A stretch of 64,000 nt of DNA from Candidatus Binatia bacterium. GTDB taxonomy: Bacteria; Desulfobacterota; Binatia; Bin18. A program made the translations under genes and the position numbers. The stretch covers positions 56,020-120,019 of the forward strand of contig CAXXHG010000007.1 in NCBI GenBank assembly GCA_963666315.2. The letters are read 5' to 3'. The notes under the pieces were generated by a model. It was not told the origin of the DNA and made no database searches. It was given only the letters and a program-made list of their open reading frames with translations. Below are positions 29,310-51,746 of the stretch, piece after piece. Positions within the stretch are counted from its first letter, which is position 1. The number at the start of each line of letters is the position of its first letter.

Positions 29310-29376
29310 GCGCTGTTCCTCGATGCCCCGGAGCCGTTCTCGTCCTCAGCACCCTTTGATGTCGTGCCATAACGGG
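29310..29376 (+). repeat. 67-bp direct repeat A (partner at 51504-51570)
   Basis: 8 mismatches in 67 bp by manual alignment; encodes ALFLDAPEPxSSxxPFDVVP*. Confidence 0.9.
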
Positions 29377-30656: not shown

Positions 30657-31358
30657 TTATGCAGCCTGATACAGCGGGTTCTCCAGCAGGTAATTCACGG
30701 TGGACGCGTACCAACGGCCGCCCTTCTTAGTTTCGACCTCCCGTTGATTCAGTTGTGCCGCAATCCAACGTAGCGACCTCCCGGCCTTCCGCTTCCTGCG
30801 TATCCATTTCACGCGCTTGAGTTCTGCATCTACAGGGGTGAGCGTGTCGCCGGTCCTGGCATACCCGAATGGCGTAGTGGGATACACTTCTCGCCGGCGC
30901 TTCTTGTACTGCAGGGCAGCAGCCGTTCGCTCGGCAATCAGATTCCGCTCCAGCTCGGCAAAACCTGCCGACATGGTCAAAAACATCCGGCCCATAGCCG
31001 ACGCCGTATTGATGCTTTGCCCGCCCATATCGAGCAGATGCAGACCAATACCGGCCTTGTCCCATACCTTCGTCTGCGTGAGACAATCGGACGCGTCTCT
31101 AAACAGCCGGTCAAGCTTCAGCACAATGGCATGCTTGACGGCTTTGCCTTTTCCTAGCGCCTGCAACAGTTCCGCCCCGCCTGGCCGGTCCGCTAGGGGA
31201 ACCGTGCCGCTGATACCTTCCTCGCGGATAATGTTCGTAACCTTGATATTCTGCGCAGTCGCATAGGCGCTGAGCCGTTCGGCCTGCGCGTCCAGCGAAA
31301 CGCCTTCTATGGCCTGTTCTGCCGTACTAACCCGCGTGTATGCAATACCTTGCTGCAT
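30657..31358 (-). CDS. Serine recombinase (resolvase domain plus short recombinase DNA-binding domain)
   Basis: YTRVST.EQ...SLDAQ, EEGISG, KLDRLFR, FAELERNLIAERT, PFGY, SLRWIAAQLN. Confidence 0.93.
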   Translation of the reverse strand: MQQGIAYTRVSTAEQAIEGVSLDAQAERLSAYATAQNIKVTNIIREEGISGTVPLADRPGGAELLQALGKGKAVKHAIVLKLDRLFRDASDCLTQTKVWDKAGIGLHLLDMGGQSINTASAMGRMFLTMSAGFAELERNLIAERTAAALQYKKRRREVYPTTPFGYARTGDTLTPVDAELKRVKWIRRKRKAGRSLRWIAAQLNQREVETKKGGRWYASTVNYLLENPLYQAA

Positions 31359-31497
31359 TTTTGTCCTTCTCTCCCGTACGAAGACGCTCCTCTTTGTACA
31401 AAATATACACTCGTCTGAAGATGATTTCAAGTTTTAAAGCGTAATTTCCTATCTTTATATATTGTTTTGCGTTAGTATGAAGGGAACGGAGGTCGCT

Positions 31498-31740
31498 ATG
31501 TCCATCGAAAAAAGAATTAGCCCCGAGTCATTAGCCGAACAGTGGGACGTCAAAGTTACGACGATTCGCAAATATATCCGCGACGGCAAGCTGCGAGCCG
31601 CGAAGTTCGGCCGCGGGTATCGCATCGCAGAAAGTGACGCCGAAGCCTTCGCAGCAGCGAACACGGCGAATATCCAAACGACCGTTTATGACCCGGCAGC
31701 CGGCGGTGACGGCACGAACATCAAGGTGACGAAACCATAG
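31498..31740 (+). CDS. Excisionase-like HTH_17 protein
   Basis: SPESLAEQWDVKVTTIRKYIRDGKLRAAKFGRGYRI; RBS GGAGG. Confidence 0.85.
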   Translation: MSIEKRISPESLAEQWDVKVTTIRKYIRDGKLRAAKFGRGYRIAESDAEAFAAANTANIQTTVYDPAAGGDGTNIKVTKP

Positions 31741-31749
31741 CGCAGAGGT

Positions 31750-34278
31750 ATGACAGCTACCGCACTGATAGCGACGCTGGAATCATCGCATCACACTAGT
31801 AGTGATACCGGGCAGATTCGTGTCGATGTGCTCAGACCTGCGCAAAGCCGATACGAAAGCGTACCCGACGAACTCAAAGGATTAAAACAATGGGTGGCCT
31901 GGAAACGTGAGCCCGACCCGAAACATCCGGGAAAGCCGCGCAAGGTGCCATACAATGCGCATACGGGACGACGCGCTTCTAGTACTGACCCTGCCACTTG
32001 GACAACGTTCGACCACATGATGACCGTCAAGGGCTATGACGGCATCGGCTTTGTTCTGGCAGAAGACGATCCGTACACCTTTATCGACCTCGACCACTGT
32101 CAAAACGCCGATACGGCTAAGCCTGATCCGTGGGCGAATGATATCGTTGGCCAGTCTGCTAATTTTTACTGGGAAGTGAGCCCGTCGGGTACAGGACTGC
32201 ATGGCCTGGGCAAAGGGTCGTGGCCGACCAGGGGCAATAAAAAAGGCAACGTCGAAGTCTACGTGGCCAGTCGGTATGCGACCGTAACGGTTCGTTATCA
32301 CGCTGGGGAGCAGTTCGAGCTCGGCGACCATACAGAAGCGCTCGAGGAGCTGCATAAACAATACTTCAACGACCCCAAGCCCGCGCCCAAGATATCTAAT
32401 GTCAAAGGGTCGGCCGGGGGCGGATTCGCGGGTACCGATGCTGACCTGATTGTCAAAGCTCAGCACGCGAAGAATGGGGCGAAATTTTCCAGTCTTTGGA
32501 CGGGCAATACTGATGGTTATCCGTCGCAGTCTGAAGCAGATCAGGCCCTAGTCAACATGCTTGTTTTTTGGTGCGCGGCGGATCCTGAGCGCATTGACCG
32601 GCTTTTTCGCGCGTCTGGCCTGTATCGGGGAAAATGGGACGAAAAACATGGTGACGATACGTATGGCGCATTGACGATCGCAAAGTCTTTGAGCGGCCAG
32701 CGTGAATATTACCGGCCGTCTTGGTCGGCCGGCAGGGTGAAGGCGGTCGACACACCTGCGGACGATTTGGAGTCCATCGTGATAACGGCCCGACCGTTGC
32801 GGGATATATCAGACGATGCCCTCAACGCTTTAGGCAAGCGCAATATCCCGCCGGCACTCTTTGTTCGTTCGAACAGACTCGTACGCTGCATAATGAATGA
32901 ATACGACACGCCCCTCATCGACATGCTCTCAGAACACGCCGTGCGCGGCAGGCTTGCCCGAGTGGCCGACTTCCTCAGAGTTAAATCGGGAAGGACAGAA
33001 GATGACCCGCCGACCCACATTCAATGTTCGCCACCACTGGATGTAACTCGAGATATTCTCGCTCTGGGGGACTGGCCATTCCCTGTTCTCGAAGGCGTCA
33101 CGTCATGCCCCATCCTGCGGCCGACGGGGGAGTTGATGCGATCACCCGGGTATAATCCCGAGACACGCTTGTTCTACTGGCCGCCCAAGAATTTCAAACT
33201 CGGGACAATTCCCGACGCGCCCGCACAAGAAGACGCGCGTGCGGCCCGGGATTATATATGTGACGAGATACTCAGCGATTTCCCATTTAGCCAAGCCGCC
33301 GATTTGGCGAACATGATCGCCACGCTGCTGACCCCGGTCACGCGGTCCGCCATTCTCGGCAATGTCCCACTGTGCCTTATCGACAAGCCCACCCCGGGGA
33401 GCGGCGCAACACTCTTAACCGACGTGGTCGCCCTTATCGCCACCGGGACGACCGCGCCCAAAATGCTCATACCGGAAGGAAGAGGCTCAGACGATGAATG
33501 GCGCAAACGCATTACCTCAACGCTTATGGACGGATACACGATTACGGTTTTTGACAATGTTGATGCGTCTCTTTCTTCCAATACGTTGGCCATGGTGTTG
33601 ACGACGGAATTTTGGCGGGATCGTATCTTAGGTCGAAGTGAAAATATCACGCTACCCGTGCATAAAACGTGGATTGCCACAGGGAATAATGTGCGCATTC
33701 GTGGTGATCTTGCGCGGCGATCCTATCGGATTCGCATCGACACTCAGCAAGAACGTCCCTGGGAACGGCACGAATTTCGGCACCTCGAGTTGTTGAAATG
33801 GGTAGAGGAGCACCGCGGAGTCATTCTCGCGAAACTGTACACCATGATCTTGGCATATTTTCAGGCCGGCTGTCCGCCTCAGAAAACACCGCCCATGGGT
33901 GGGTTTGAATCGTGGGTCCAATTGGTTGGCGGGATCCTCGCCTATGCAGGCGTTGTCGGATTCTCAGAGAAACGCATGGACCTCTACGAACTCGTTGACG
34001 ACGAAGGACCACAATGGGCCGCATTTCTTTTGGCGTGGTCTGAACAATTCGGGACTCAGACCCGCACAGTTTCTGAGTTTTTCGTGCTGGCCTCTTCTGA
34101 TCTGCGCGCTGCTATTCCCGAGTGTTTAGCGATCGACCTAGATCGTTTGGATTCAGCAAAGAAGAAGCTAGGCAGAGCATTAGCGAAACGGGTCGACCGC
34201 ATTTATGGCGAATATCGCATTACCAGATCGAAAGACGAGCACAGTAAAATATGGCGATGGACAGTCAGCGAAGCCTAA
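31750..34278 (+). CDS. NrS-1-like primase-polymerase fused to helix-bundle and helicase-like domains
   Basis: QWVAW, KVPY, GIGF, IDLDHC, EVSPSGTGLH; SEADQAL...DRLFRASGLYRGKWD; PGYNP, GSGAT, FDNV, WIATGNN, DLARR. Confidence 0.88.
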   Translation: MTATALIATLESSHHTSSDTGQIRVDVLRPAQSRYESVPDELKGLKQWVAWKREPDPKHPGKPRKVPYNAHTGRRASSTDPATWTTFDHMMTVKGYDGIGFVLAEDDPYTFIDLDHCQNADTAKPDPWANDIVGQSANFYWEVSPSGTGLHGLGKGSWPTRGNKKGNVEVYVASRYATVTVRYHAGEQFELGDHTEALEELHKQYFNDPKPAPKISNVKGSAGGGFAGTDADLIVKAQHAKNGAKFSSLWTGNTDGYPSQSEADQALVNMLVFWCAADPERIDRLFRASGLYRGKWDEKHGDDTYGALTIAKSLSGQREYYRPSWSAGRVKAVDTPADDLESIVITARPLRDISDDALNALGKRNIPPALFVRSNRLVRCIMNEYDTPLIDMLSEHAVRGRLARVADFLRVKSGRTEDDPPTHIQCSPPLDVTRDILALGDWPFPVLEGVTSCPILRPTGELMRSPGYNPETRLFYWPPKNFKLGTIPDAPAQEDARAARDYICDEILSDFPFSQAADLANMIATLLTPVTRSAILGNVPLCLIDKPTPGSGATLLTDVVALIATGTTAPKMLIPEGRGSDDEWRKRITSTLMDGYTITVFDNVDASLSSNTLAMVLTTEFWRDRILGRSENITLPVHKTWIATGNNVRIRGDLARRSYRIRIDTQQERPWERHEFRHLELLKWVEEHRGVILAKLYTMILAYFQAGCPPQKTPPMGGFESWVQLVGGILAYAGVVGFSEKRMDLYELVDDEGPQWAAFLLAWSEQFGTQTRTVSEFFVLASSDLRAAIPECLAIDLDRLDSAKKKLGRALAKRVDRIYGEYRITRSKDEHSKIWRWTVSEA

Positions 34279-34283
34279 TTGAG

Positions 34284-34446
34284 TTGCGGAGTTTTTGTCA
34301 ATGCTAACATGTATCAGTTTTCTCTTTTATCCAGGTGAATTGATATAGAGGAGGGCCGACCCGATACCCCGCAAAACCCCGCAAGAATTCTAAGTGCTTG
34401 ATTTTCCTAGACCTGCTGCGGGGCTTGTAAATGGGAAACCCCGCAT
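34284..34446. repeat. Direct and inverted ACCCCGCA motifs after the primase; putative origin
   Basis: ACCCCGCA at 34366, 34376 and 34438; inverted TGCGGGG at 34417; TTGCGG at 34284. Confidence 0.5.
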
Positions 34447-34458
34447 GAGGAGCACGAA

Positions 34459-34680
34459 ATGGCGACAAATAAAGACGTTCTTGATGTCTTTCCGGGCGCA
34501 AAAGTGGTCGACCCAAAGGACGTGGCCCGGCGCTCGAATATACCGGCCAAGGTGGAACAACCCCAGGAGCAAGAGGTTCGCACCGCCAAAGTCGACGCCG
34601 AGAGAAAAAGTCGCATTGAACGCGCATTAAAAGCCGGTGCCCGGCGACAACAAGGCCGGCAGGGCCGACTGTTTGAGTGA
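34459..34680 (+). CDS. Small hypothetical phage-type protein
   Basis: RBS GAGGAG; VLDVFPGAKVV...QGRLF. Confidence 0.55.
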   Translation: MATNKDVLDVFPGAKVVDPKDVARRSNIPAKVEQPQEQEVRTAKVDAERKSRIERALKAGARRQQGRQGRLFE

Positions 34681-34950
34681 GGAATCATATGTTTAAGTAT
34701 TGGTCTTAACAATAAACACGATGCTCAAGACCGAGAATGCCCGGCATGCGAGTGCCGGCTGTGGTGGGTGGATGGCCTTGGTCATGCGCATTGCGCGGAA
34801 TGCACCCCGCCTGCTGACCGCGCACTGGTCATACGATGGCTTCGACCGACCACACCGAGCTACGACCGCCACTGGTTGCAGGATGCCGCATAAGGGTGAG
34901 GTTGAGTATCCGATTCGACATCCCAGATCCTGGTCTTCACTTTGGGTCCA

Positions 34951-35442
34951 TCATTCACCGAGATGCAACCGGAGGCTCTCGATCTGAATCGGCGCATCCT
35001 CTTTGTCATCCAAACCCAGCTCACTCCGACTGGGGCTGTGCAAGATCAACACCTTCTGCTCGATGCTGACGTTGGCCTCAGGGCTGAACATGCCCAGATG
35101 CTTGCCGAGCAGCTCAGCCGATCTGTTTGCTCCAGCGGCATCGAAACGCCAAACGCCAGTCGTCCGGCCTTCGCTATCCATGACCGGAGTGCCCTGTAGC
35201 CATCGGTCGTTGATCTCGAGCAGACGTTTCAAGACCTCATCCACCGTAATCTGTGTCCGAACAGAGGCCGCTTTCTGCGCTTCCTCGATCGCAGCCTGAA
35301 TGTCTGGTTTCGAGAGGTTCTCCGATCCGATCTTCCGTGCTGTTTTTTCACCATATCCCGCCCGGATCGCGGCTTTGGTCGCGCAGAGATCGATTAGATA
35401 CTCGTCAACAAACTTCGCCTGCTTAGGCGTCAATGTCGCCAT
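34951..35442 (-). CDS. terS: Terminase small subunit
   Basis: LTPKQAKFVDEYLIDLCATKAAIRAGY...GSENLSKPDIQ...AELLGKHLGMF. Confidence 0.92.
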   Translation of the reverse strand: MATLTPKQAKFVDEYLIDLCATKAAIRAGYGEKTARKIGSENLSKPDIQAAIEEAQKAASVRTQITVDEVLKRLLEINDRWLQGTPVMDSEGRTTGVWRFDAAGANRSAELLGKHLGMFSPEANVSIEQKVLILHSPSRSELGLDDKEDAPIQIESLRLHLGE

Positions 35443-35801
35443 CAGTGTCCTCGCTGTCCCGCTCAACCCACCGGGCAATTCTGCGCGATCAACATCACGC
35501 GCCGGACGGTTCGAAAGTCGGCCGACGTAAACTCCCATTGCGCTTTGCCCACAAATCCGGGTTGGAAGAGCCTGAGCAAAAAGTCGCTGCGGTGGATCTC
35601 GTCGCCGGTGAGTGCGTCGGTCAATTCATCCAATGTCGTCGGCTGTAATGGCAAGCGCGCTTTTCGAGGGGCGTGGTCAATGCTGCGCATACAGTCGTTG
35701 TTCACGGTGCGAACATACGCCGGCTGACACGTATTTCTAAAATAATGTCGTCGGGGCTCACGGTAAGACCATTTCGCTCGAAGATGCCAGGATAGACAAG
35801 A

Positions 35802-39928: not shown

Positions 39929-39990
39929 GCGGGGCCGGCTAGAGGCAGGTTTTTTCGCGCCGGTTGGGGCAACCTTCACAATGGAAAGTT

Positions 39991-40137
39991 CTCTGTTTTC
40001 GTGTTAAGTAGCGAGACAACAAACTAACCTATAAGGAGTCAGTTATGTTGATTACAGCTGTATTGTTCTTACTTGTAGCCTCCCCTGTCTTTGCGCAGCT
40101 CGATCTTGATAGTGGGGGCAACGTCGGGATTGGGACG
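39991..40137 (+). repeat. ~146-bp direct repeat, copy 2
   Basis: Matches 35802-35947. Confidence 0.92.
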
Positions 40138-40734
40138 GCGAACCCAGAGGTGAAACTGCATGTCAATGGGCAGATATTGATGGAGGCGTCTAACGGATTC
40201 CTGAAGTTTGACCGTGCCTCGACAGGGGCAGATCTTTCCATGCGGTTCTCCACAGGCAATACGATGCAGTGGCAATTTGTACAAGAGGGGAATTCGTCGC
40301 AAGATTTGCTTCTGCAGCGTGCTGGCAGTATCGCAGTCATGACCTTTGACCAGGCGCAGGGCCGCATTGGCATCGGCACGACCAACCCTACGGACGAGCT
40401 TCACGTCAACGGGCACATCCGTGCCGAGGGCAGCTTCATCTCCGGAAGTACGGTCCTGAACGTGCCTGACTACGTCTTCGAGCCCGACTATCTGCTTATG
40501 CCACTGCCAGAACTGGCTACATTCGTTGCACACGAAAAACACCTGCCCAACGTTCCGTCAGCAGCGGAGATAAGCGAGACGGGCGTGAATATGACGGACA
40601 TGCAGATGAAGCTGTTGGCCAAGGTGGAGGAATTGACGCTGTACACGATTGAGCAAGATAGGATGATCCAGGAACTGGCGGCGCGGGTGGCCGTCATGGA
40701 GCAGTCCGGGTCACGATTAGGCACGGTCAAATAA
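40045..40734 (+). CDS. Secreted tail-fibre-like protein with GNVGIGT repeats and C-terminal chaperone-like/coiled-coil domain
   Basis: GNVGIGT, GRIGIGT, PDYVFEPDY, HLPNVPSA, LLAKVEELTLY. Confidence 0.75.
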   Translation: MLITAVLFLLVASPVFAQLDLDSGGNVGIGTANPEVKLHVNGQILMEASNGFLKFDRASTGADLSMRFSTGNTMQWQFVQEGNSSQDLLLQRAGSIAVMTFDQAQGRIGIGTTNPTDELHVNGHIRAEGSFISGSTVLNVPDYVFEPDYLLMPLPELATFVAHEKHLPNVPSAAEISETGVNMTDMQMKLLAKVEELTLYTIEQDRMIQELAARVAVMEQSGSRLGTVK

Positions 40735-41087
40735 TCTGAATGAACTCGCGCGATGTCTGGTGCTATCGGCTCGATCATTTCCGTTGCGCGCGTGTCGAGG
40801 AACGAATCGGTTATGGGTCGCATCGAGATCGTGCCGTACAGGGCGAATATGGAGCCACTGTCGCCGCAACGCATCGGTAATCAAGTTCGGATCGATCAAG
40901 CAGTCCTGCTGGCGTTCAAGCCAGACCTCAGCGTCGTGCGCCGCTCGCTCCAAGTCCCGCCGCCCTTGTTCACCTTTTGTAATGGGATTCTCCTTTCGCA
41001 GATCAGCTTACTACAGCAGTTGCCACAACCCCGACACAGGAGAATGAACCACAAGAGAATGGAGCAATTCACCGGTAGATAGTAGGC

Positions 41088-41170
41088 AAAAATAAAAGCC
41101 TGGAGTTGCAGCTCCAGGCTTTTATTTTTCTCGGCGTGGCGGGAACCATCACGAGAACAACGCCCTTGGT
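41088..41170 (-). ncRNA. Candidate antisense countertranscript RNA, copy 1
   Basis: TTGACC-17-TATTGT (41205-41177, minus strand), TTCTCG/CGAGAA hairpin, terminator AAAAGCCTGGAG...CTCCAGGCTTTT plus U tail. Confidence 0.65.
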
Positions 41171-41237
41171 GCGTGTACAATAACTGATTGTTCTTGTGCG
41201 GTCAAATCCCTGCCAGCACCGAGAGGTGGAAGGTGGT

Positions 41238-41762
41238 GTGGCTGTGGCAGGATCACTAGCAGATGTGGGGCGGTTGGCGTGGAGTGACGTTCGAGTTCTC
41301 GAAGAAATTTGCTACCTGTGTAAGCTCAGGAAGCGGAAAGGGTTGGCAGCCTACTGTATCCCTGGACGCAAATACCTCAGCCGAAAGACCGGCTACGCAA
41401 TCCGGACGATCACCAGAGCCACAGACCGCTTGGAAGCCGCAGGACTCATCCAGAAGCGGCAACGGCGGCCGGTCCAAGGCAAATGGGCAACCAACCTCTA
41501 CCGGCCCGTGCAGAAGCGATTTTGGAAGCTGGCGGGGCGATCGGCAAAGCCTTTTCACCACCTGATGCGCAGTGTCACCGGATGCCGTTCAGCCGCCTGG
41601 CTGCCTATTGTGGGCGCGAGAGGGGCAAAATCAGCGGGGCTCAGAACGTCGATATGCGTCCGTTTCGGACTTTCGCCCCCAGTGCGGCTTAAAAGACCTC
41701 CGTCACCAAATTGGGATACGACTCTCACGCCGGCGCTGAACATCCAATTTTCTCAAAAATAA
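41238..41762 (+). CDS. Winged-HTH replication-initiator-like protein, copy 1 (C-terminus probably corrupted)
   Basis: YCIPGRKYLSRKTGYAIRTITRATDRLEAAGLI...TNLY; paralog of 43448-43942. Confidence 0.65.
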   Translation: MAVAGSLADVGRLAWSDVRVLEEICYLCKLRKRKGLAAYCIPGRKYLSRKTGYAIRTITRATDRLEAAGLIQKRQRRPVQGKWATNLYRPVQKRFWKLAGRSAKPFHHLMRSVTGCRSAAWLPIVGARGAKSAGLRTSICVRFGLSPPVRLKRPPSPNWDTTLTPALNIQFSQK

Positions 41763-42468
41763 AGGGTGGTTCCGTTGTTGCATCCCGGCGGCTGTCAACA
41801 CTCTTTGGTAGAGTCGCTTGTAGTCGTATTCCCTCCTATTTCTGTCTGAATTCCAGGCCTTCGGTATCCACTTATCGAGATATTCCGCGATCTTATGCCC
41901 TGCAGCAGGGGCATCTTCGTCAACGGCCGCATATGCCGCGATATATTTTGCTTGGAGCTCCTTATCCTTGCCCAAGTGTTCGAAAATTCCAATCCTGATA
42001 GAGGCCCAGGCATGAGAAACCTCACCCCATTCAGACGGAGGTGATTGTACGAGTGGTTCAATTTGCCGTCGCATCCAATTGCTCGCTTGACTATGTGGAT
42101 CAAAACCACGTCTCTCCAGTTCCATAAAGATAACAATGTGCTCCAGCTGGTTCGTAGTATCCCCTGCAAAGAGGTTAATATGTTGGTCTACAACACTAGA
42201 GGCCAGGATCAGTGCTCCATCATGAAAACGGCTAATGTGAAGCCAGTTCATGTACGAGTGCATGTTCATCGAATTCCCGTGGTATCCGGGCATTTCTGGT
42301 GACGTGAGGCTGCCATTGCTTAAAACCACCACTGGCCGATGCATTGTCGTCGACTGCATCAAACTCCTCTTCGCCAAACCCTATTTTACAGTTTGTCCTA
42401 TGCTCGATGTCTGCAATTAACGTAAGCGTATCTTCGCTAGGCTCGAATCCGAACAATGTAGTGTCCAT
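41703..42468 (-). pseudogene. HExxH zinc-metallopeptidase-like gene, +1 frameshift inside the motif
   Basis: CATGAACTGGCT-T-CACATT: removing one T gives LVHELAHISR and joins ORFs 42232-42468 and 41703-42377. Confidence 0.65.
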
Positions 42469-42745
42469 TTGAAATAGCTCCTTTCGAATCTCCGGCGGTG
42501 AAAATACATTCGGATTTGGCCTGCCTTGGTCAGCATAATCCGCCTCCTGCTGCTTGGCAAAATGCGACCAAAATTATCCTGTCACTATTGTCCAGACCAG
42601 TCAGGATTCCGTCCTCCTGCGCCGTGGCTGGATTGGCAATATCCCTGTCCTAATGTGGAACAATGAGTCCTGGCACATTTGACCAAATACCAAAAGGCGA
42701 GTAGCCTCATTATGTTAGGTGGCTGTTGGTATGAGGAGGTGGAGG

Positions 42746-43282
42746 ATGGACGAGCAATCTTATCGTGACTGGCCCGCTGCTCCCGAAGCAAGCCAAAGGG
42801 CTGGTGTTTCCCAAAGAACATTACGAAGAATGGCTGACCGGGACGAAGTGCGTCGTGGGGTTGTTCGCATATCTGGTAGGAAGCCTCTACCGGTATTCTA
42901 CCCAGACGATTTGGACCGGGTGCGCAAAAGCATGGCCCCATCTGATGCGGTCAAATTGCCCCAAAAACCGGCTAAAAAGCGTCCCAAGCCGCATCCCCTG
43001 ATCGTTGACCTGAAGGACCGGGTATTTCTCAATTTGAGAGAAACTGCGGCCCTTAGTGGGTTGCCTAGAGATGTTGTTGTTAAGCTTGCCGACACAGGAA
43101 GCTTGTACGGTTTTCAGCGTGGGAACCGTTGGTATATCAGCCGGGAAAGCGTGCAACTGTTGGGCACACCGTCAGCGCAAATACCACAAGCCCTCTTGGC
43201 CAAACCTGTCCAAAAGAACCCAGGCCAGATTGGCACAACGGTAAATGATGAAGCAACAAATGGAGTGAATAATAGCGCGTAA
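42746..43282 (+). CDS. Double HTH (MerR/Xis-like) DNA-binding protein
   Basis: EASQRAGVSQRTLRRM and LNLRETAALSGLPRDVV...GNRWYISRESV; RBS GGAGG. Confidence 0.72.
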   Translation: MDEQSYRDWPAAPEASQRAGVSQRTLRRMADRDEVRRGVVRISGRKPLPVFYPDDLDRVRKSMAPSDAVKLPQKPAKKRPKPHPLIVDLKDRVFLNLRETAALSGLPRDVVVKLADTGSLYGFQRGNRWYISRESVQLLGTPSAQIPQALLAKPVQKNPGQIGTTVNDEATNGVNNSA

Positions 43283-43291
43283 GTTTTGACC

Positions 43292-43375
43292 AAGAATAAA
43301 GCCATGTGCTGGAACACGTGGCTTAAAATCTTTCTCGGCGTGGCGGGAACCATTACGAGAACAACGTCCTTAGTA
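43292..43375 (-). ncRNA. Candidate antisense countertranscript RNA, copy 2
   Basis: TTGACA-18-TAATTT with TG extension (43411-43382, minus strand), same TTCTCG/CGAGAA hairpin, terminator AAGCCACGTG...CACATGGCTT plus U-rich tail. Confidence 0.62.
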
Positions 43376-43447
43376 TCTTCAAAATTAGCATGTTGTTCTT
43401 GTGCTTGTCAAATCCCATCCAGCTCCGAGGGAAGTGGGGGTGGTGTT

Positions 43448-43942
43448 GTGGCTGGACTGCAAGACGTGGGGCGGCTGGAATGGTCGGATATCAGAGTCTT
43501 TGAAGAACTTACCTATCTTTGCAAACTGCGAAGACGAAAAGGGCTTGTGGCCTACGTCATTCCGTCTCGGAAATACCTATCCAAGAAGACCGGCTTCTGC
43601 ATTACCACGGTAAGCCGGGCGACCAATCGACTTGTATCTCAAGGATTGCTCAGGAAGACTCAAAGACGGCCTGTACGGGGGATCTATCAAACCTACGTTT
43701 ATAAGGCCGTACCGCGCAAATTTTGGCGTCTAGCGGCCACATTGGGCAAACTGTGGAGCTCGGAGTCAGTGGCCAGGGTAGGGTGGCCAACTCGCCGTGT
43801 GACAGGTGTGGCACTCAAACATCTAAGAGAAAAGAAAATAACTCTTCACCCCCCAAAGGAAGGGGAATTGTCTCAATCTTCCCCTCTCCTTGAGCGCCTG
43901 CCGTTACTCCAAACCTGGTTAGCAAGAGGAAAAGGTCGTTAA
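43448..43942 (+). CDS. Winged-HTH replication-initiator-like protein, copy 2
   Basis: YVIPSRKYLSKKTGFCITTVSRATNRLVSQGLL; GTG start inferred from alignment with copy 1. Confidence 0.68.
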   Translation: MAGLQDVGRLEWSDIRVFEELTYLCKLRRRKGLVAYVIPSRKYLSKKTGFCITTVSRATNRLVSQGLLRKTQRRPVRGIYQTYVYKAVPRKFWRLAATLGKLWSSESVARVGWPTRRVTGVALKHLREKKITLHPPKEGELSQSSPLLERLPLLQTWLARGKGR

Positions 43943-44017: not shown

Positions 44018-44245
44018 TTGGAACAGAAGGGGAATCCCCTGAATAATATCGTCCACGAAGAGTGTAAGCATTGTCGGCAGCTATACCTTGTCATGACCGT
44101 CTGGAAGGACGTGGATCAGTCTGGCGAGACCTTTGAAAGACCCGCGCGTCGAGATGTGCAGACCTGTCTCCCATGCGCGACACGCGGCCACCGGTTGGCA
44201 TATCGTGGACCATGTCCCTTGTGTGGTGAAGGGACGGACGGTTGA
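44018..44245 (+). CDS. Small Cys-rich (Zn-binding) protein
   Basis: CKHC, CLPC, CPLC; RBS GAGG before TTG. Confidence 0.55.
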   Translation: MEQKGNPLNNIVHEECKHCRQLYLVMTVWKDVDQSGETFERPARRDVQTCLPCATRGHRLAYRGPCPLCGEGTDG

Positions 44246-44682: not shown

Positions 44683-45027
44683 GTGTCCCGGAAGAAGAAG
44701 CAGCTCTCTGCCACGGCATTTGATCGTAAAATTAAGATATGGGGCGTGATTGCCCCGGTCCTTATTGGCCTGCTCATTTGCTCAACCGCTCTTTTTATCC
44801 ACCTCCGTCCGCCCTCCCGCCAGGGAATCGTCGTAGCTGACAAAAGCTCCGTGGTCCGAGATCTGCCAGGGAGAGTGACGGCGCTCACCCGGGAAAGTGA
44901 GACGAGCGAGTGGCAACAGGTAGGCATCATGCTCATGAGTGCATCTGGAATCTTGATGCTCCTGCTGAGTCTCGGCCGCATTTACGTCCACTCACGGTAC
45001 AGACAGGTAGAGAGCAGTGACGTATGA
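44683..45027 (+). CDS. Small two-TM membrane protein
   Basis: Basic N-terminus and two hydrophobic segments. Confidence 0.5.
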   Translation: MSRKKKQLSATAFDRKIKIWGVIAPVLIGLLICSTALFIHLRPPSRQGIVVADKSSVVRDLPGRVTALTRESETSEWQQVGIMLMSASGILMLLLSLGRIYVHSRYRQVESSDV

Positions 45028-46690: not shown

Positions 46691-47270
46691 GCTCGTTGCA
46701 GTTATCGCCTCACAAAGCGCTCGTCATAAGGGTCCAACGCATGGCACATCGACAGACGACACCACGGTTTGCGGTCGCGCAACTCCCCAATGGCCTGTGG
46801 TCAGTCCACTATAAAGGGGTACCAATCCGCAGCTATGACAAGCGTGGCTGGGCAATACGTATGGCGAAAAATCTCAACAACAAGGAGAACGTGGGGCGAT
46901 GGTTGCGCCACCAGGCCGCCAAAATTGCCGCCTCTGTAGACAGCTGATTGAGGGACGCCCTATTGTCAGGAAAGAAAGGAATCATCATTGGCTTTCCCGA
47001 AGGCGCCGGCGTAATCCTTCAAAACCCTTAATCGGGCATATGTGCCCGATTGGAGAGATTAGGCGGGTTCACGCGTCCAGAAAATGCCACGGATATATAG
47101 CCATCTTAGCTAATTTCTAGCCGATTTGGGTCAAGTCCATTACATATATGCCGATACGTATTCGTAGCGGTGTTTGTCATGATCCACCGCTCTTCATTCT
47201 GAGGCCGTAGGGTTTTCCAGGTGGCTAGAGAGGGATATCTGGCATATGGGCCTCCCTACGGCCCTGTTCT

Positions 47271-47615
47271 TCACGATAAAGTGAGGCGGAATCGGCGTGA
47301 CCTTTCTTCTGGCTCAGCCGTCCCGGGTATCACGGCGTATTTCTTCAGCGGCCGCGCCCGCAGGAAGTCAGGATCAATGTGCAAGGTGTCACAGATAAAT
47401 ATGAAGCTACCGAGTGCGGTGTTCTCGGACTCGAGCCAGGTCAGCGACTCGTTCTGCAGGGTCCGCTTCTGGTGGTCTATGTTGTCTTTCCCGTAGGTGA
47501 AGATACCGCGCTGTTCGAGGCCCATGACGGCATTGCCCAGGACCGCCGCCCACAGCAGCAGCTGTCCGGTCAGGCGCTTTGGGGGCAAGATTGTCGCCAG
47601 CCGCTGCTTGGACAT
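47271..47615 (-). CDS. Hypothetical protein of a recurrent small family
   Basis: LLWAAVL..A...WL......GSFIFICDTLHIDPDFLR pattern. Confidence 0.6.
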   Translation of the reverse strand: MSKQRLATILPPKRLTGQLLLWAAVLGNAVMGLEQRGIFTYGKDNIDHQKRTLQNESLTWLESENTALGSFIFICDTLHIDPDFLRARPLKKYAVIPGTAEPEERSRRFRLTLS

Positions 47616-47693
47616 ACCGTGGTGATACAGAATGTTCCGGCGTTTACCAACCCTCTGAGACGCACACGCAGCGAAACTCGTCGCGTTGCGCCC

Positions 47694-48311
47694 CTACACG
47701 AAGCTGTCATCGGTGCGACTGCGGAGCTGGATGGTCCCCGCTTCTTCGAGTGCCGTGGCCGTCTCCAAAATGGCCTTCTGGGGGGCCTCTACCACGCTGA
47801 GCCGCACCGGATCTACCGCGTCCATGTCCTCTTTCAACAGACCGGTGGCGCGCTCGGACATGTTCCGGAAGAGCGGTTCCTTCAACCTGGTACTTGCCGT
47901 TCGAAGGGCCACAGCCCATTGATTCCGGTCGATCCCCCCCGCCAGCGTTTGGAGGCTCTGGTCATCCACCGTTTGCAGATCCTCGAACGCGAACATCTCG
48001 GCGCGCACCTGCTCGGCCAACTCCGCGTCTTCTGCCTCCAGGCCGGTCAGTATGGCCTCTTCTGTCCAGTGCTCCTTGGTTAAACCGGTGCAGAGGTAAT
48101 CGCTGCTGCTGTCTAGGCTCAGGCCTGCGTTCGCCGCCTTCTCCATCAGATCGTCGAAGACTTCAGTGATGTCACCGTGGGCGATGACCCCAGCCTTGCC
48201 AAGGCCGTGCAGCTGCAAGAGCTCGTTCGGGGCCAATTGTGCCACCAGCTCACCGGCGACCTCTTCCCCGACTAACCCCAAGAAGACGACGACTTTCTCG
48301 GGACCCGTCAT
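47694..48311 (-). CDS. Orphan FliG-like protein (N- and C-terminal parts, middle missing)
   Basis: TGPEKVVVFL..VGEE.A; AELAEQVRAEMFAFEDL, FRNMSERA, PVRLSVVE.PQKAI. Confidence 0.78.
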   Translation of the reverse strand: MTGPEKVVVFLGLVGEEVAGELVAQLAPNELLQLHGLGKAGVIAHGDITEVFDDLMEKAANAGLSLDSSSDYLCTGLTKEHWTEEAILTGLEAEDAELAEQVRAEMFAFEDLQTVDDQSLQTLAGGIDRNQWAVALRTASTRLKEPLFRNMSERATGLLKEDMDAVDPVRLSVVEAPQKAILETATALEEAGTIQLRSRTDDSFV

Positions 48312-48827: not shown

Positions 48828-49169
48828 GTGAGCAATACTTCTGGCTCGACCGTCGTGGCTATTATCCGTGAGGAAGGAGTGTCCGGGACTATTTCGCTCG
48901 CACAACGCCTAGGTGGAAACAAATTCTTCTCCTCCGTCGGGAAGGGCAAAAAGATTCAGCATGTGATTGCGCTCAAGCTGGACCGCTTATTCCGAGATGC
49001 GAGCGATTGCCTGGTGCAAACCAAGCTCTGGGACAAGACTGGTATTGGTCTGCATCTCCTTGATATGGGCGGTCAAAGCATTAACACGGCCTCCGCTACG
49101 GGCCGGATGTTCTTAACCATGAGTGCGGGATTTGCCGAGCTGGCCCAACAGGCACGTCGGTGCCACTGA
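48828..49169 (+). pseudogene. Internal fragment of a serine recombinase paralogous to 30657-31358
   Basis: IIREEGVSGT...LKLDRLFRDASDCL...GRMFLTMSAGFAEL; catalytic Ser region and C-terminus absent. Confidence 0.88.
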
Positions 49170-50012: not shown

Positions 50013-51566
50013 GTGACCCTACTCGCGAAGAACATTCTTATCCTCGCCGCCGCCCTGCTGTTCGGCACACCTCCCGCAAGCGCGCAACAGGTCCAGGTGC
50101 TGGAGCACGGCACGGTGGAACATAAATCCAGCTCGTTGGTGCAGGTCGATGCCGACACCTACGCCCTCGCCTACCAGGGGCGCCGACACCGACGGGTTCC
50201 TCAAGACCTTCACCATCAGCGCGGACGGCATGACCATCACCCAGGTCCAGGTGCTGGAGCACGACACGGCCCAAGGGACACACAACTCGTTGGTGCAGGT
50301 CGATGCCGACACCTACGCCCTCGCCTACTCTGGCGCCGACGAGGACGGGTTCCTCAAGACCTTCACCATCAGCGCGGACGGCATGACCATCACCCAGGTC
50401 CAGGTGCTGGAGCACGACACGGACCGTAGGGCGCCGCCAACTCGCTGGTGCAGGTCGATGCCGACACCTACGCCCTCGCCTACCAGGGGCGCCGACGGCG
50501 ACGGGTTCCTCAAGACCTTCACCATCACCGCCGACTGTCCGACCGATCTCGTGCTCTCCAACCAAACGATGAGCGGGACGCAGGTCTTCAGATCCGAGAG
50601 CACGATGACGGTCGGGCCGAATATGACCGTCCCGAGCGGGGCCGCGATCACACTGCGGTCGAGGACAATTCGTTTGGAGGCGGGGGTTTCCATACAGTTG
50701 GGGGCAACGTTCACGGCTAACACGGACCCGGACCCCTGTGAGAGTGCCATGGACACAGTGCGCAGGCAGGACCGGGAGTTTGTCTTTGCGGCAGGCGCCG
50801 CGGGGGACGACGAGGGGGACGGCGTATCGAATGCGCTGAGGAATGCGAATGGTGTCCCTGCCTCCGGTGTGGGGGGCCCCATCAGTGGCTCTCCGAACAA
50901 AGCCGGCGACGATCCACTGCTCGACGGCACCCACACCTTCTTACTCATCGACGAGGACTCCATCGACCACGCCACGCCGCCGAACTTCTTCTCGGAGTTG
51001 GACGTGAATGCGGACATGGCCGAGATCGGGCTGCGCGAACGGCTCCTGTTCTTCGCCGACAACCCAGGGGCAATCCTCACTCTGCATACGGGCGCAGTCG
51101 GGGATGAAGGCTGGTTCGCGCTGAAGACGATCCCCGCCTCGTGGGCCGCCGTGGGGCGGACGGGCGAGGGGCTGCGCAATTACCTCCACGCCGATCCCGG
51201 CCTCGGCACCCCCGACCTCGATGGGGACCGGGAGGCACTGCTGGTTCAGATCCCCGATGTCACTCCACTGCGCGCGACCGGCCTCCGGCTGTTGGAGGGG
51301 CAACAGGTCTGCGCCGTGGTCTATGACCGCGATGTCCGCGTGACCTACGCCCCCTTAACGCGGCAGCCTCCACGGGAGCGAACCTCGGGATTGTGGCCTT
51401 TGAGATCCTGGCCGTGACCGAATCGACAGCCTCTTCCCCAGCCGCCCTCCCGCAGGTCGAAATCCAACTTTTGGACGCCGATCGATTGTGCGCCAAGGAA
51501 CTGGCGCTGTTCCTCGATGCCCCAGAACCGTCGTCGTCCTTAGAGCCCTTTGATGTCGTGCCGTAA
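50013..51566 (+). pseudogene. Secreted repeat protein (3 x 51-aa blades, beta domain, C-terminal domain) with several frameshifts
   Basis: Signal peptide ending ASA-QQ; frame shifts near 50178, 50430-50490 and 51360-51380; ends PFDVVP*. Confidence 0.7.
50088..50529 (+). repeat. Three 153-bp tandem coding units
   Basis: CAGGTCCAGGTGCTGGAGCACG at 50088, 50242 and 50395. Confidence 0.95.
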
Positions 51567-51570
51567 CGGG
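51504..51570 (+). repeat. Repeat A partner
   Basis: Matches 29310-29376. Confidence 0.9.

Positions 51571-51673: not shown

Positions 51674-51746
<73 letters not shown>

Follow-up and report, generated by a model that had tools for sequence, protein, structure and literature searches.

A repeated intergenic module upstream of a rare winged-helix gene in Binatia is a candidate countertranscript control region

We analysed 64,000 nucleotides (nt) of the Candidatus Binatia bacterium assembly GCA_963666315.2 (contig CAXXHG010000007.1, positions 56,020 to 120,019; this whole stretch is referred to here as the window), which lie on contig C7 of a 5.0-Mb draft genome. The original prediction, made from this DNA alone, had described a module seen twice between positions 41088 and 43942, comprising an antisense RNA of ~85 nt and a small gene encoding a winged helix-turn-helix (HTH) protein, and had proposed it as a new replicon control system. 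A whole-genome DNA search identified three copies of the module, two in the window (copies 1 and 2) and a third on contig C24 (copy 3), and in all three the same rare gene of about 165 amino acids (aa), HTH_36-like and starting with GTG, lies directly 3' of the module. Each copy combines two conserved blocks, here called A and B, with signals for a putative leftward RNA and a long rightward hairpin. The simplest account that uses all of these features would be a cis-antisense circuit, which we favour tentatively, at a little under even confidence, on comparison of the copies.

The 41-nt pattern of block A matches the window exactly at two places, 41127-41167 and 43331-43371, both on the plus strand, and at none in 100 shuffles; the claim that the module occurs twice in the window thus stands. 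The blocks lie as follows:

41127 to 41167, no strand assigned: block A of copy 1, body of the putative minus-strand RNA and, on the plus strand, 5' arm of the long hairpin
41188 to 41210, no strand assigned: block B of copy 1, right arm of an inner inverted repeat together with the leftward -35 element
43331 to 43371, no strand assigned: block A of copy 2, from the exact pattern match and conservation
43393 to 43416, no strand assigned: block B of copy 2, from conservation by segment

Identities are given pairwise for the three copies, in the order copy 1 with copy 2, copy 1 with copy 3, and copy 2 with copy 3. Block A is identical at 39/41, 37/42 and 35/42 positions, and the 24-nt block B, which was absent from the original prediction, at 22/24, 22/24 and 24/24. 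The spacer that follows block A keeps a constant length of 21 nt, with 9, 11 and 14 of its 21 positions identical (43%, 52% and 67%). Identity is 67%, 89% and 70% in the hairpin segment, 58-74% in the ribosome-site region, and 59%, 80% and 64% over the first 306 nt of the winged-helix gene, the third codon positions of which are 45%, 67% and 49% identical. Blocks A and B are thus 83-100% identical as against 43-67% for the spacer and 45-67% for third codon positions, and on this comparison they appear as two discrete stretches under strong constraint with a free spacer between them. A single gene-conversion tract cannot explain the pattern, because the intervening spacer is not conserved. The description of a nearly invariant 41-nt block (39/41 between the window copies), more conserved than the coding DNA (45% of third codon positions for the same pair), is borne out. 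We also considered block A as coding DNA and rejected this, since the frames of its small open reading frames (ORFs) differ among the copies; the block is therefore not coding.

By searching the whole genome with a covariance model built from the three copies, we recovered these same copies as the strong matches (101 bits for copy 1 and 98 bits for copy 2), whilst one further match was marginal (18.9 bits, E 0.4) and involved the terminator part of the model alone. None of 27 same-genus genomes matched the model (0/27). In keeping with the predicted linkage, the motif was never found away from the HTH gene in this genome or in those 27. Rfam at gathering thresholds returned a tRNA alone and left the module without a match, and at E values up to 10 it gave sub-threshold matches alone, which the terminator hairpin accounts for. 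A single contig of an independent public assembly spans 40900-43673 with 2 differences and carries both window copies in tandem, so that the layout cannot be put down to misassembly of this genome alone. A search for further sequences revealed one distant locus among metagenome contigs and none among genome contigs or viral contigs. A fourth variant of the module is found in a relative present in two public runs, X2 and X5, with yet another stem at the same place. Matches from motif scans (1 and 5 hits) proved on inspection to be unrelated sequence.

On the minus strand, each copy carries a promoter-like site followed by a hairpin with a U-tract, positioned in the window as follows:

41178 to 41205, minus strand: leftward promoter-like site of copy 1, TTGACC-17-TATTGT, scoring 9/12 in the consensus scan
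43382 to 43411, minus strand: leftward promoter-like site of copy 2, TTGACA-18-TAATTT, with TG one base before the -10 element, unflagged by the scan
41088 to 41129, no strand assigned: terminator hairpin of copy 1, A-tract before and T-tract after, 21-nt arms with 95% complementarity
43291 to 43324, no strand assigned: hairpin of copy 2, with a minus-strand U-tract and a weak T-run on the plus strand
41090 to 41171, minus strand: putative countertranscript of ~80 nt in copy 1, ends predicted from the -10 element and terminator, -36.5 kcal/mol, z -5.5
43293 to 43375, minus strand: putative countertranscript of ~80 nt in copy 2, ends likewise predicted, -22.8 kcal/mol, z -2.3

The leftward -35 element lies in block B and reads, on the minus strand, TTGACA in copies 2 and 3 and TTGACC in copy 1; 17-18 nt on, an AT-rich -10 element starts with TA in each case (TATTGT in copy 1, TAATTT in copy 2 and TAATTC in copy 3), with a TG one base ahead of it in copies 2 and 3. 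A GC-rich hairpin with an immediate U-tract follows ~80 nt downstream of the promoter-like site on the minus strand in 3/3 copies, and the fourth variant of X2 and X5 likewise shows a T-run on the minus-strand side after its different stem (read before 43320). A plus-strand T-run after the hairpin stem is present in copy 1 and, apart from the weak run of copy 2, in neither of the other copies. Judged by its letters, the copy 1 hairpin has the form of a two-way intrinsic terminator, and it is also the 3' hairpin of the minus-strand fold. That the hairpins differ in sequence whilst keeping their position, as had been claimed, is true of the three copies and of the fourth variant. The fold predicted for the putative RNA (z -5.5, -2.3 and -4.6) has a 5' tail, then a stem-loop of 12 pairs, and lastly the terminator, from which most of the energy comes; in the three-way consensus, two pairs of the terminator stem are preserved despite changes on both sides, and the TTCTCG/CGAGAA stem through which the block was said to fold is present in 3/3 copies. 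A leftward promoter and terminator in 3/3 copies are probably consistent with a countertranscript. To this extent the proposed antisense RNA of ~85 nt is partly supported, -35, -10 and terminator signals for it being there in each copy. The conserved DNA is wider than the RNA that was proposed.

The two blocks are also complementary to one another. An inverted repeat of 11-16 nt has one arm in the right half of block A and the other in the left half of block B (11 nt with 91% complementarity and arms 27 nt apart in copy 1; 16 nt with 81% in copy 2), whilst block A is complementary in its left half to the end of block B and to conserved CCAGC..CGAG letters preceding the ribosome site. RNAalifold gives on the plus strand one 30-pair hairpin, the tip of which is the variable AT-rich spacer carrying the leftward -10 element:

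41128 to 41225, plus strand: long imperfect hairpin of copy 1, 30 pairs, joining block A to block B and to the stretch before the ribosome-binding site (RBS)
43332 to 43431, plus strand: long imperfect hairpin of copy 2, 30-pair consensus

Counted over the same 30 pairs, 88/90 cells are paired on the plus strand (97.8%) versus 79/90 on the minus strand (87.8%), and of the one-sided changes, four stay paired as G-U on the plus strand as against one on the minus strand. Copy 3 has one inserted letter in each arm of the hairpin, and the inserted letters pair with each other; across the three sequences, no pair of the hairpin is changed on both sides. Variable positions of the 3' arm fall on loops and bulges. 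The letters of the leftward -35 element are unpaired in the plus-strand hairpin yet invariant, whereas other unpaired sites of that arm vary, and this invariance would be what a promoter adds to the structural constraint. Because block A pairs with block B and the pre-RBS stretch, and does so better on the mRNA strand, the region can be regarded no less as a structured leader or operator than as an RNA gene.

The genes on either side of the module in the window are:

41244 to 41762, plus strand: winged-helix gene of copy 1, N-terminal 100 aa intact, C-terminal half degenerate
43448 to 43942, plus strand: winged-helix gene of copy 2, intact, 164 aa, with a C-terminal PLLxxW motif
42719 to 43282, plus strand: double HTH_17/excisionase-like gene upstream of copy 2, likely start ATG 42746, PF12728 at E 2.7e-9

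The GTG starts of the winged-helix gene are at 41244 (copy 1), 43448 (copy 2) and L002:1661 (copy 3), and the C-termini of copies 1 and 3 are degenerate or truncated, without the PLLxxW motif of the family. HTH_36 (PF13730) is the sole Pfam signal in the protein, at 21.0 bits (copy 1) and 22.9 bits (copy 2), under the gathering cut-off of 25 bits. In PHROGs, the N-terminus matches five families annotated as replication initiation protein or O-like (E 2.8e-8 to 6e-4), the matches being confined to residues ~5-92 of proteins of 165-172 aa, whereas the profiles have 298-455 positions. The AlphaFold model (predicted local distance difference test score 72.9) comprises a single winged-helix domain, a long helix, and a tail of low confidence in which a short C-terminal helix is conserved. 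With Foldseek, the structures most like it, all at E > 0.001, were DnaD, an archaeal regulator, TFE-alpha, regulators of the MarR type and the replication terminator protein (RTP). A sequence search against solved structures gave nothing below E 0.1, NCBIfam and PADLOC gave no match, and no named family or characterised relative of the protein was found. The gene upstream is less constant. An HTH_17 gene precedes the module in 2/3 copies, one of them frameshifted: the gene before copy 2, whose TIGR01764 match is under cut-off, and a different, frameshifted HTH_17 gene before copy 3. The double-HTH gene placed upstream by the original prediction is thus present at copy 2, but copy 1 has instead a short similarity remnant just before the hairpin.

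The family itself is rare, with 30 clusters at 90% identity among 5.8 billion proteins. The superfamily around it has 534 representative clusters, and the 150 listed are, with few exceptions, small stand-alone proteins of ~140-200 aa. Twenty of these 150 were scanned, and HTH_36 was found at E <= 0.001 in 17, six of which reached the cut-off; one scanned relative also passes RepC N-terminal. Counting this genome, the gene is found in 3/61 relatives' genomes, 2/401 genomes of the phylum and 2/401 of the class, occurring as fragments in two same-genus genomes, whilst a distant 271-aa HTH_36 protein lies beside an AlpA-like gene in the phylum. No relatives were found by tblastn in 72,556 plasmids or 50,697 phages. 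A distant member on a metagenome contig (L011, 43% identity) has at L011:150-235 a 20-bp near-perfect palindrome with TTGTTC, and its leftward TTGACT faces a divergent protein-coding gene rather than a terminator.

Taken together, these features suggest that the module would control two genes of a rare mobile element, in which a regulator gene of HTH_17 type (excisionase/AlpA-like) is followed by the small HTH_36-like gene, whose winged-helix DNA-binding domain resembles phage O-type and DnaD-type replication initiators. A rightward transcript may read from the regulator gene through the weak plus-strand hairpin into the winged-helix gene, and in this RNA the conserved blocks would be the arms of an imperfect hairpin of ~100 nt, with the leftward -10 element in its tip, the -35 element in its 3' arm and the terminator ~80 nt away. 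From the leftward promoter to the terminator, a countertranscript of ~80 nt would be made that is fully complementary to the 5' arm of the hairpin. Once paired, the two transcripts could form a long duplex on which RNase III would act, the leader hairpin could be unfolded, or both could happen; interference from head-on transcription may contribute, and synthesis of the winged-helix protein would thereby be set. Since block A hardly differs among the copies, RNA from one copy could also act on the others. We also examined pairing in trans of the putative RNA with the RBS or start codon, and rejected it, the duplex energies being no better than those of 500 shuffles (fractions at least as good 0.53, 0.92 and 0.54); a switch that hides the start codon when the 5' arm is blocked was likewise not supported, the modelled change in access being inconsistent among the three copies.

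A circuit of regulator, countertranscript and initiator-like gene would be analogous to lambda cII-oop-O, pMV158 copG-RNAII-repB and R1 copB-copA-repA, an analogy that we put forward with slightly more doubt than conviction. According to PMC5869508, the pO-oop-tO unit of lambda lies between cII and O and gives a short leftward RNA, for which it has a promoter and a terminator hairpin; the likeness is that of a leftward unit between an HTH regulator and an origin-binding winged-helix gene, with the promoter beside the start of that gene. Copy 2 has this order and orientation, the putative leftward unit lying between the regulator gene and the O-like gene. In lambda, however, 52 bases of oop overlap the end of cII, whereas here the terminator lies 9-17 nt past the stop codon (in copy 2, stop codon 43280-43282 and putative RNA end near 43293), so that only untranslated RNA would be covered. 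Unlike lambda O, the protein here has 165 aa and no C-terminal domain, and its gene contains no repeats; the likeness is one of layout, with no sequence relationship shown. The parts of PMC5717011 and PMC4485353 that bear on pMV158 copG-RNAII-repB and R1 copB-copA-tap-repA describe a small repressor gene cotranscribed with rep and a countertranscript between them, and to that extent the order of regulator gene, putative countertranscript region and downstream gene is shared. In contrast to those operons, the modules here lie in chromosomal islets, the putative RNA ends ~70 nt before the start codon and leaves the RBS uncovered, no leader peptide or origin was seen, there is no Rfam match to a countertranscript RNA, and the upstream gene is HTH_17 rather than a ribbon-helix-helix Cop. 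By analogy the module is of a known circuit kind, and its mechanism would repeat a well-known theme; to call it a new control system was an overstatement, the layout being that of lambda cII-oop-O and of cop/antisense/rep operons. A few general literature searches found no paper on this module.

Several observations weigh against the cis-antisense circuit. Block B is conserved far past the -35 element, which an RNA gene alone does not account for. Promoter-like sites are no commoner than in shuffles (3 found versus 2.8 expected over 3.6 kb), and although both hexamer pairs named by the original prediction are present, the consensus scan passes the promoter of copy 1 alone and does not call the hairpins terminators, an omission that we guess is probably due to a palindrome running to its centre. 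The -10 element of copy 2 matches at 3/6 letters and that of copy 3 lacks the last T. In the stem-loop of the RNA body, no pair is changed on both sides among the three sequences, ten of the 12 pairs being invariant, one improving and one breaking. In the relative of runs X2 and X5, among the pieces listed, 57 nt between the matching pieces are without an 80% match, which hints that block A may be less constant there. Contigs of run X13, the one RNA-library run with matches to this stretch, cover 41323-41469 and 42435-42690 rather than the blocks and are strandless; they are neutral on the small RNA, neither for nor against it. On the rightward side, the plus-strand leader folds are no more stable than shuffles (z -0.8 to -1.7), the advantage of plus over minus strand amounts to a few events in a structure derived from the same three sequences, a by-eye check of the blocks gave no convincing match to a sigma-54 site or a plus-strand sigma-70 promoter, and the winged-helix gene is without an identified plus-strand promoter, read-through being assumed.

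In one alternative, the blocks would be operators only, bound by the HTH_17 or winged-helix protein at inverted TTCTYG-type half-sites and the 11-12-bp inverted repeat and controlling a rightward promoter, the leftward RNA being an unimportant by-product. Every copy contains inverted repeats, block A is dyad-symmetric, a DNA-binding gene lies on either side of the site, and the conservation of block B exceeds the -35 element; at the matching place, L011 has its TTGTTC palindrome and a leftward promoter-like site without a terminator. We nevertheless consider operators alone unlikely, if by no means negligible, since a protein site has no reason to prefer the G-U pairs that most arm changes keep on one strand, the matched insertions of copy 3 keep pairing whilst altering the spacing of the arms, the distance of 25-60 bp between those arms is unusual for a site bound by one dimer, and a leftward terminator without a leftward gene stays unexplained. 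The strand preference would be accommodated by a rightward leader acting alone, in which the ~100-nt hairpin is an RNase III site, stabiliser or translation-control element in an intercistronic mRNA, the first hairpin is the terminator or attenuator of the upstream gene, and the leftward promoter match is due to chance. Plus-strand pairing is indeed the better (97.8% versus 87.8% of cells), variable sites lie in loops and bulges, the stem stops a few bases short of the RBS, and the RNA-library contigs fall within the winged-helix gene of copy 1 and upstream of the HTH_17 gene. Yet the fold is no stabler than shuffles, blocking the 5' arm in silico brings no consistent change in start-codon access in the three copies, and neither the invariant unpaired TGTCAA/GGTCAA nor the minus-strand orientation of the U-tract in all variants is explained, and we hold a leader of this kind to be rather unlikely.

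A site acting at the DNA level, either an attachment (att)- or res-like recombination site for the serine recombinase of the island or a folding single-strand origin or promoter, seems to us very improbable. The long strand-biased hairpin, with its promoter-like letters, may resemble single-strand origins. The window copies are direct repeats bracketing 2.2 kb, serine recombinase genes are present in the island (intact at 30657-31430, a fragment at 48828-49169), and block A resembles two 12-bp inverted half-sites (9/12 alike) around 6 bp. Similarity between the copies, however, extends >300 nt into the gene, which makes this a duplicated module and not a bare site; no contig joins the copies as an excision product, and the single listed joint has 11 unrelated letters between its sides and comes from a relative that maps partly to each copy. 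The recombinase genes are 5-10 kb off, and no rolling-circle or relaxase gene was seen nearby in family scans.

The identity of the winged-helix protein as a replication initiator is weakly supported. We estimate at roughly one in four the chance that the protein is a replication initiator rather than just a transcription regulator. Its N-terminal matches to phage replication-initiator profiles favour such a role, as does the occurrence of HTH_36 as a REP type in small plasmids; against it, the protein is a 165-aa stand-alone domain, and unlike phage O-like or DnaD-like initiators it would, by PHROG comparison and the AlphaFold model, have one winged-helix domain without the C-terminal domain that recruits the replication machinery. 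The replicon part of the claim is disfavoured by the lack of plasmid or phage relatives and by the absence of iterons: no direct-repeat family was found near copy 1, chance-like 2-copy repeats were found near copy 2, and no tandem repeat was found in 40-48 kb. All copies are moreover chromosomal, and two of the three are decaying. HTH_36 proteins are listed as the REP type of two small Paracoccus replicons (PMC6209633), and occur in the replication/regulation region of Stx phages (PMC8951638); the likeness is that HTH_36 is the sole Pfam signal here, whereas the window scores are sub-cut-off and without those plasmid or phage relatives. A further and improbable extension would be an unrecognised type of small integrative replicon in deep-sea Binatia, with a 165-aa O-like mini-initiator, a ~80-nt countertranscript on a ~100-nt leader hairpin, and RNA genes at decayed copies that would act in trans to bar incoming elements of this family, by immunity or incompatibility.

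If the cis-antisense circuit is correct, no regulatory RNA and no control circuit of a mobile element would have been described for Binatia before it, limited literature searches having found none. To our knowledge, this lineage has no cultured representatives. A function would also follow for the small stand-alone HTH_36-like family of 534 representative clusters, no characterised member of which was found. Because the mechanism itself is well known, the value would lie mainly in annotation and comparison.

The window modules sit in a pile-up of mobile DNA adjoining tRNA-Thr, in which several stretches are repeated elsewhere in the genome, whereas copy 3 is in a 2.3-kb islet amid ordinary chromosomal genes. 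This islet (L023:7506-9930, G000:C24) lies between a TPR gene and a cytochrome cluster and also carries a C-terminal fragment of another member of the winged-helix family; its order is the family-gene C-terminal fragment, the frameshifted HTH_17 gene and copy 3, and the window shows the same order of parts. The RNA-library contig at 41323-41469 falls inside the winged-helix gene of copy 1. That at 42435-42690 is a 256-nt marine metatranscriptome contig with 1 difference, located between a divergent 224-aa gene and the HTH_17 gene, and this intergenic region carries a minus-strand promoter-like site (42560-42532). Other features of the surrounding DNA are:

44018 to 44245, plus strand: small ORF with three CxxC motifs, downstream of copy 2, no family match
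44683 to 45027, plus strand: small ORF with two hydrophobic stretches, no family passing cut-off
30657 to 31430, minus strand: serine recombinase, intact
31462 to 31740, strand unstated: excisionase-like HTH gene, part of the set at 30657-35538
31750 to 34278, strand unstated: primase-polymerase/helicase with an NrS-1 polymerase HBD domain
34951 to 35538, minus strand: small terminase subunit, part of the set at 30657-35538
48828 to 49169, strand unstated: serine recombinase fragment within the island

The genes at 30657-35538 make up a set like that of a satellite or phage-inducible chromosomal island (PICI). A 928-nt stretch at 39980-40907 is 100% identical to C46:105782-106709, the repeat stopping 180 nt before copy 1, and the gene within it (40045-40734) has weak tail-fibre-like matches. 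At 47262-48074, a 234-aa gene (47379-48083) has DNA paralogues at 84% on C24, 17 kb from copy 3, and at 80% on C8. A 67-nt direct repeat with 88% identity (29310-29376 and 51504-51570) brackets the mobile region beside tRNA-Thr (51674-51746, minus strand) and, when aligned, resembles a 3' end common to paralogous genes rather than an att site. Lastly, 2.9 tandem copies of a 153-nt unit occupy 50088-50535 within a 422-aa ORF (50149-51417), which is GC-rich (GC at third codon positions 0.83), has no family match, and has paralogues 88-94% identical on C27 and C37.

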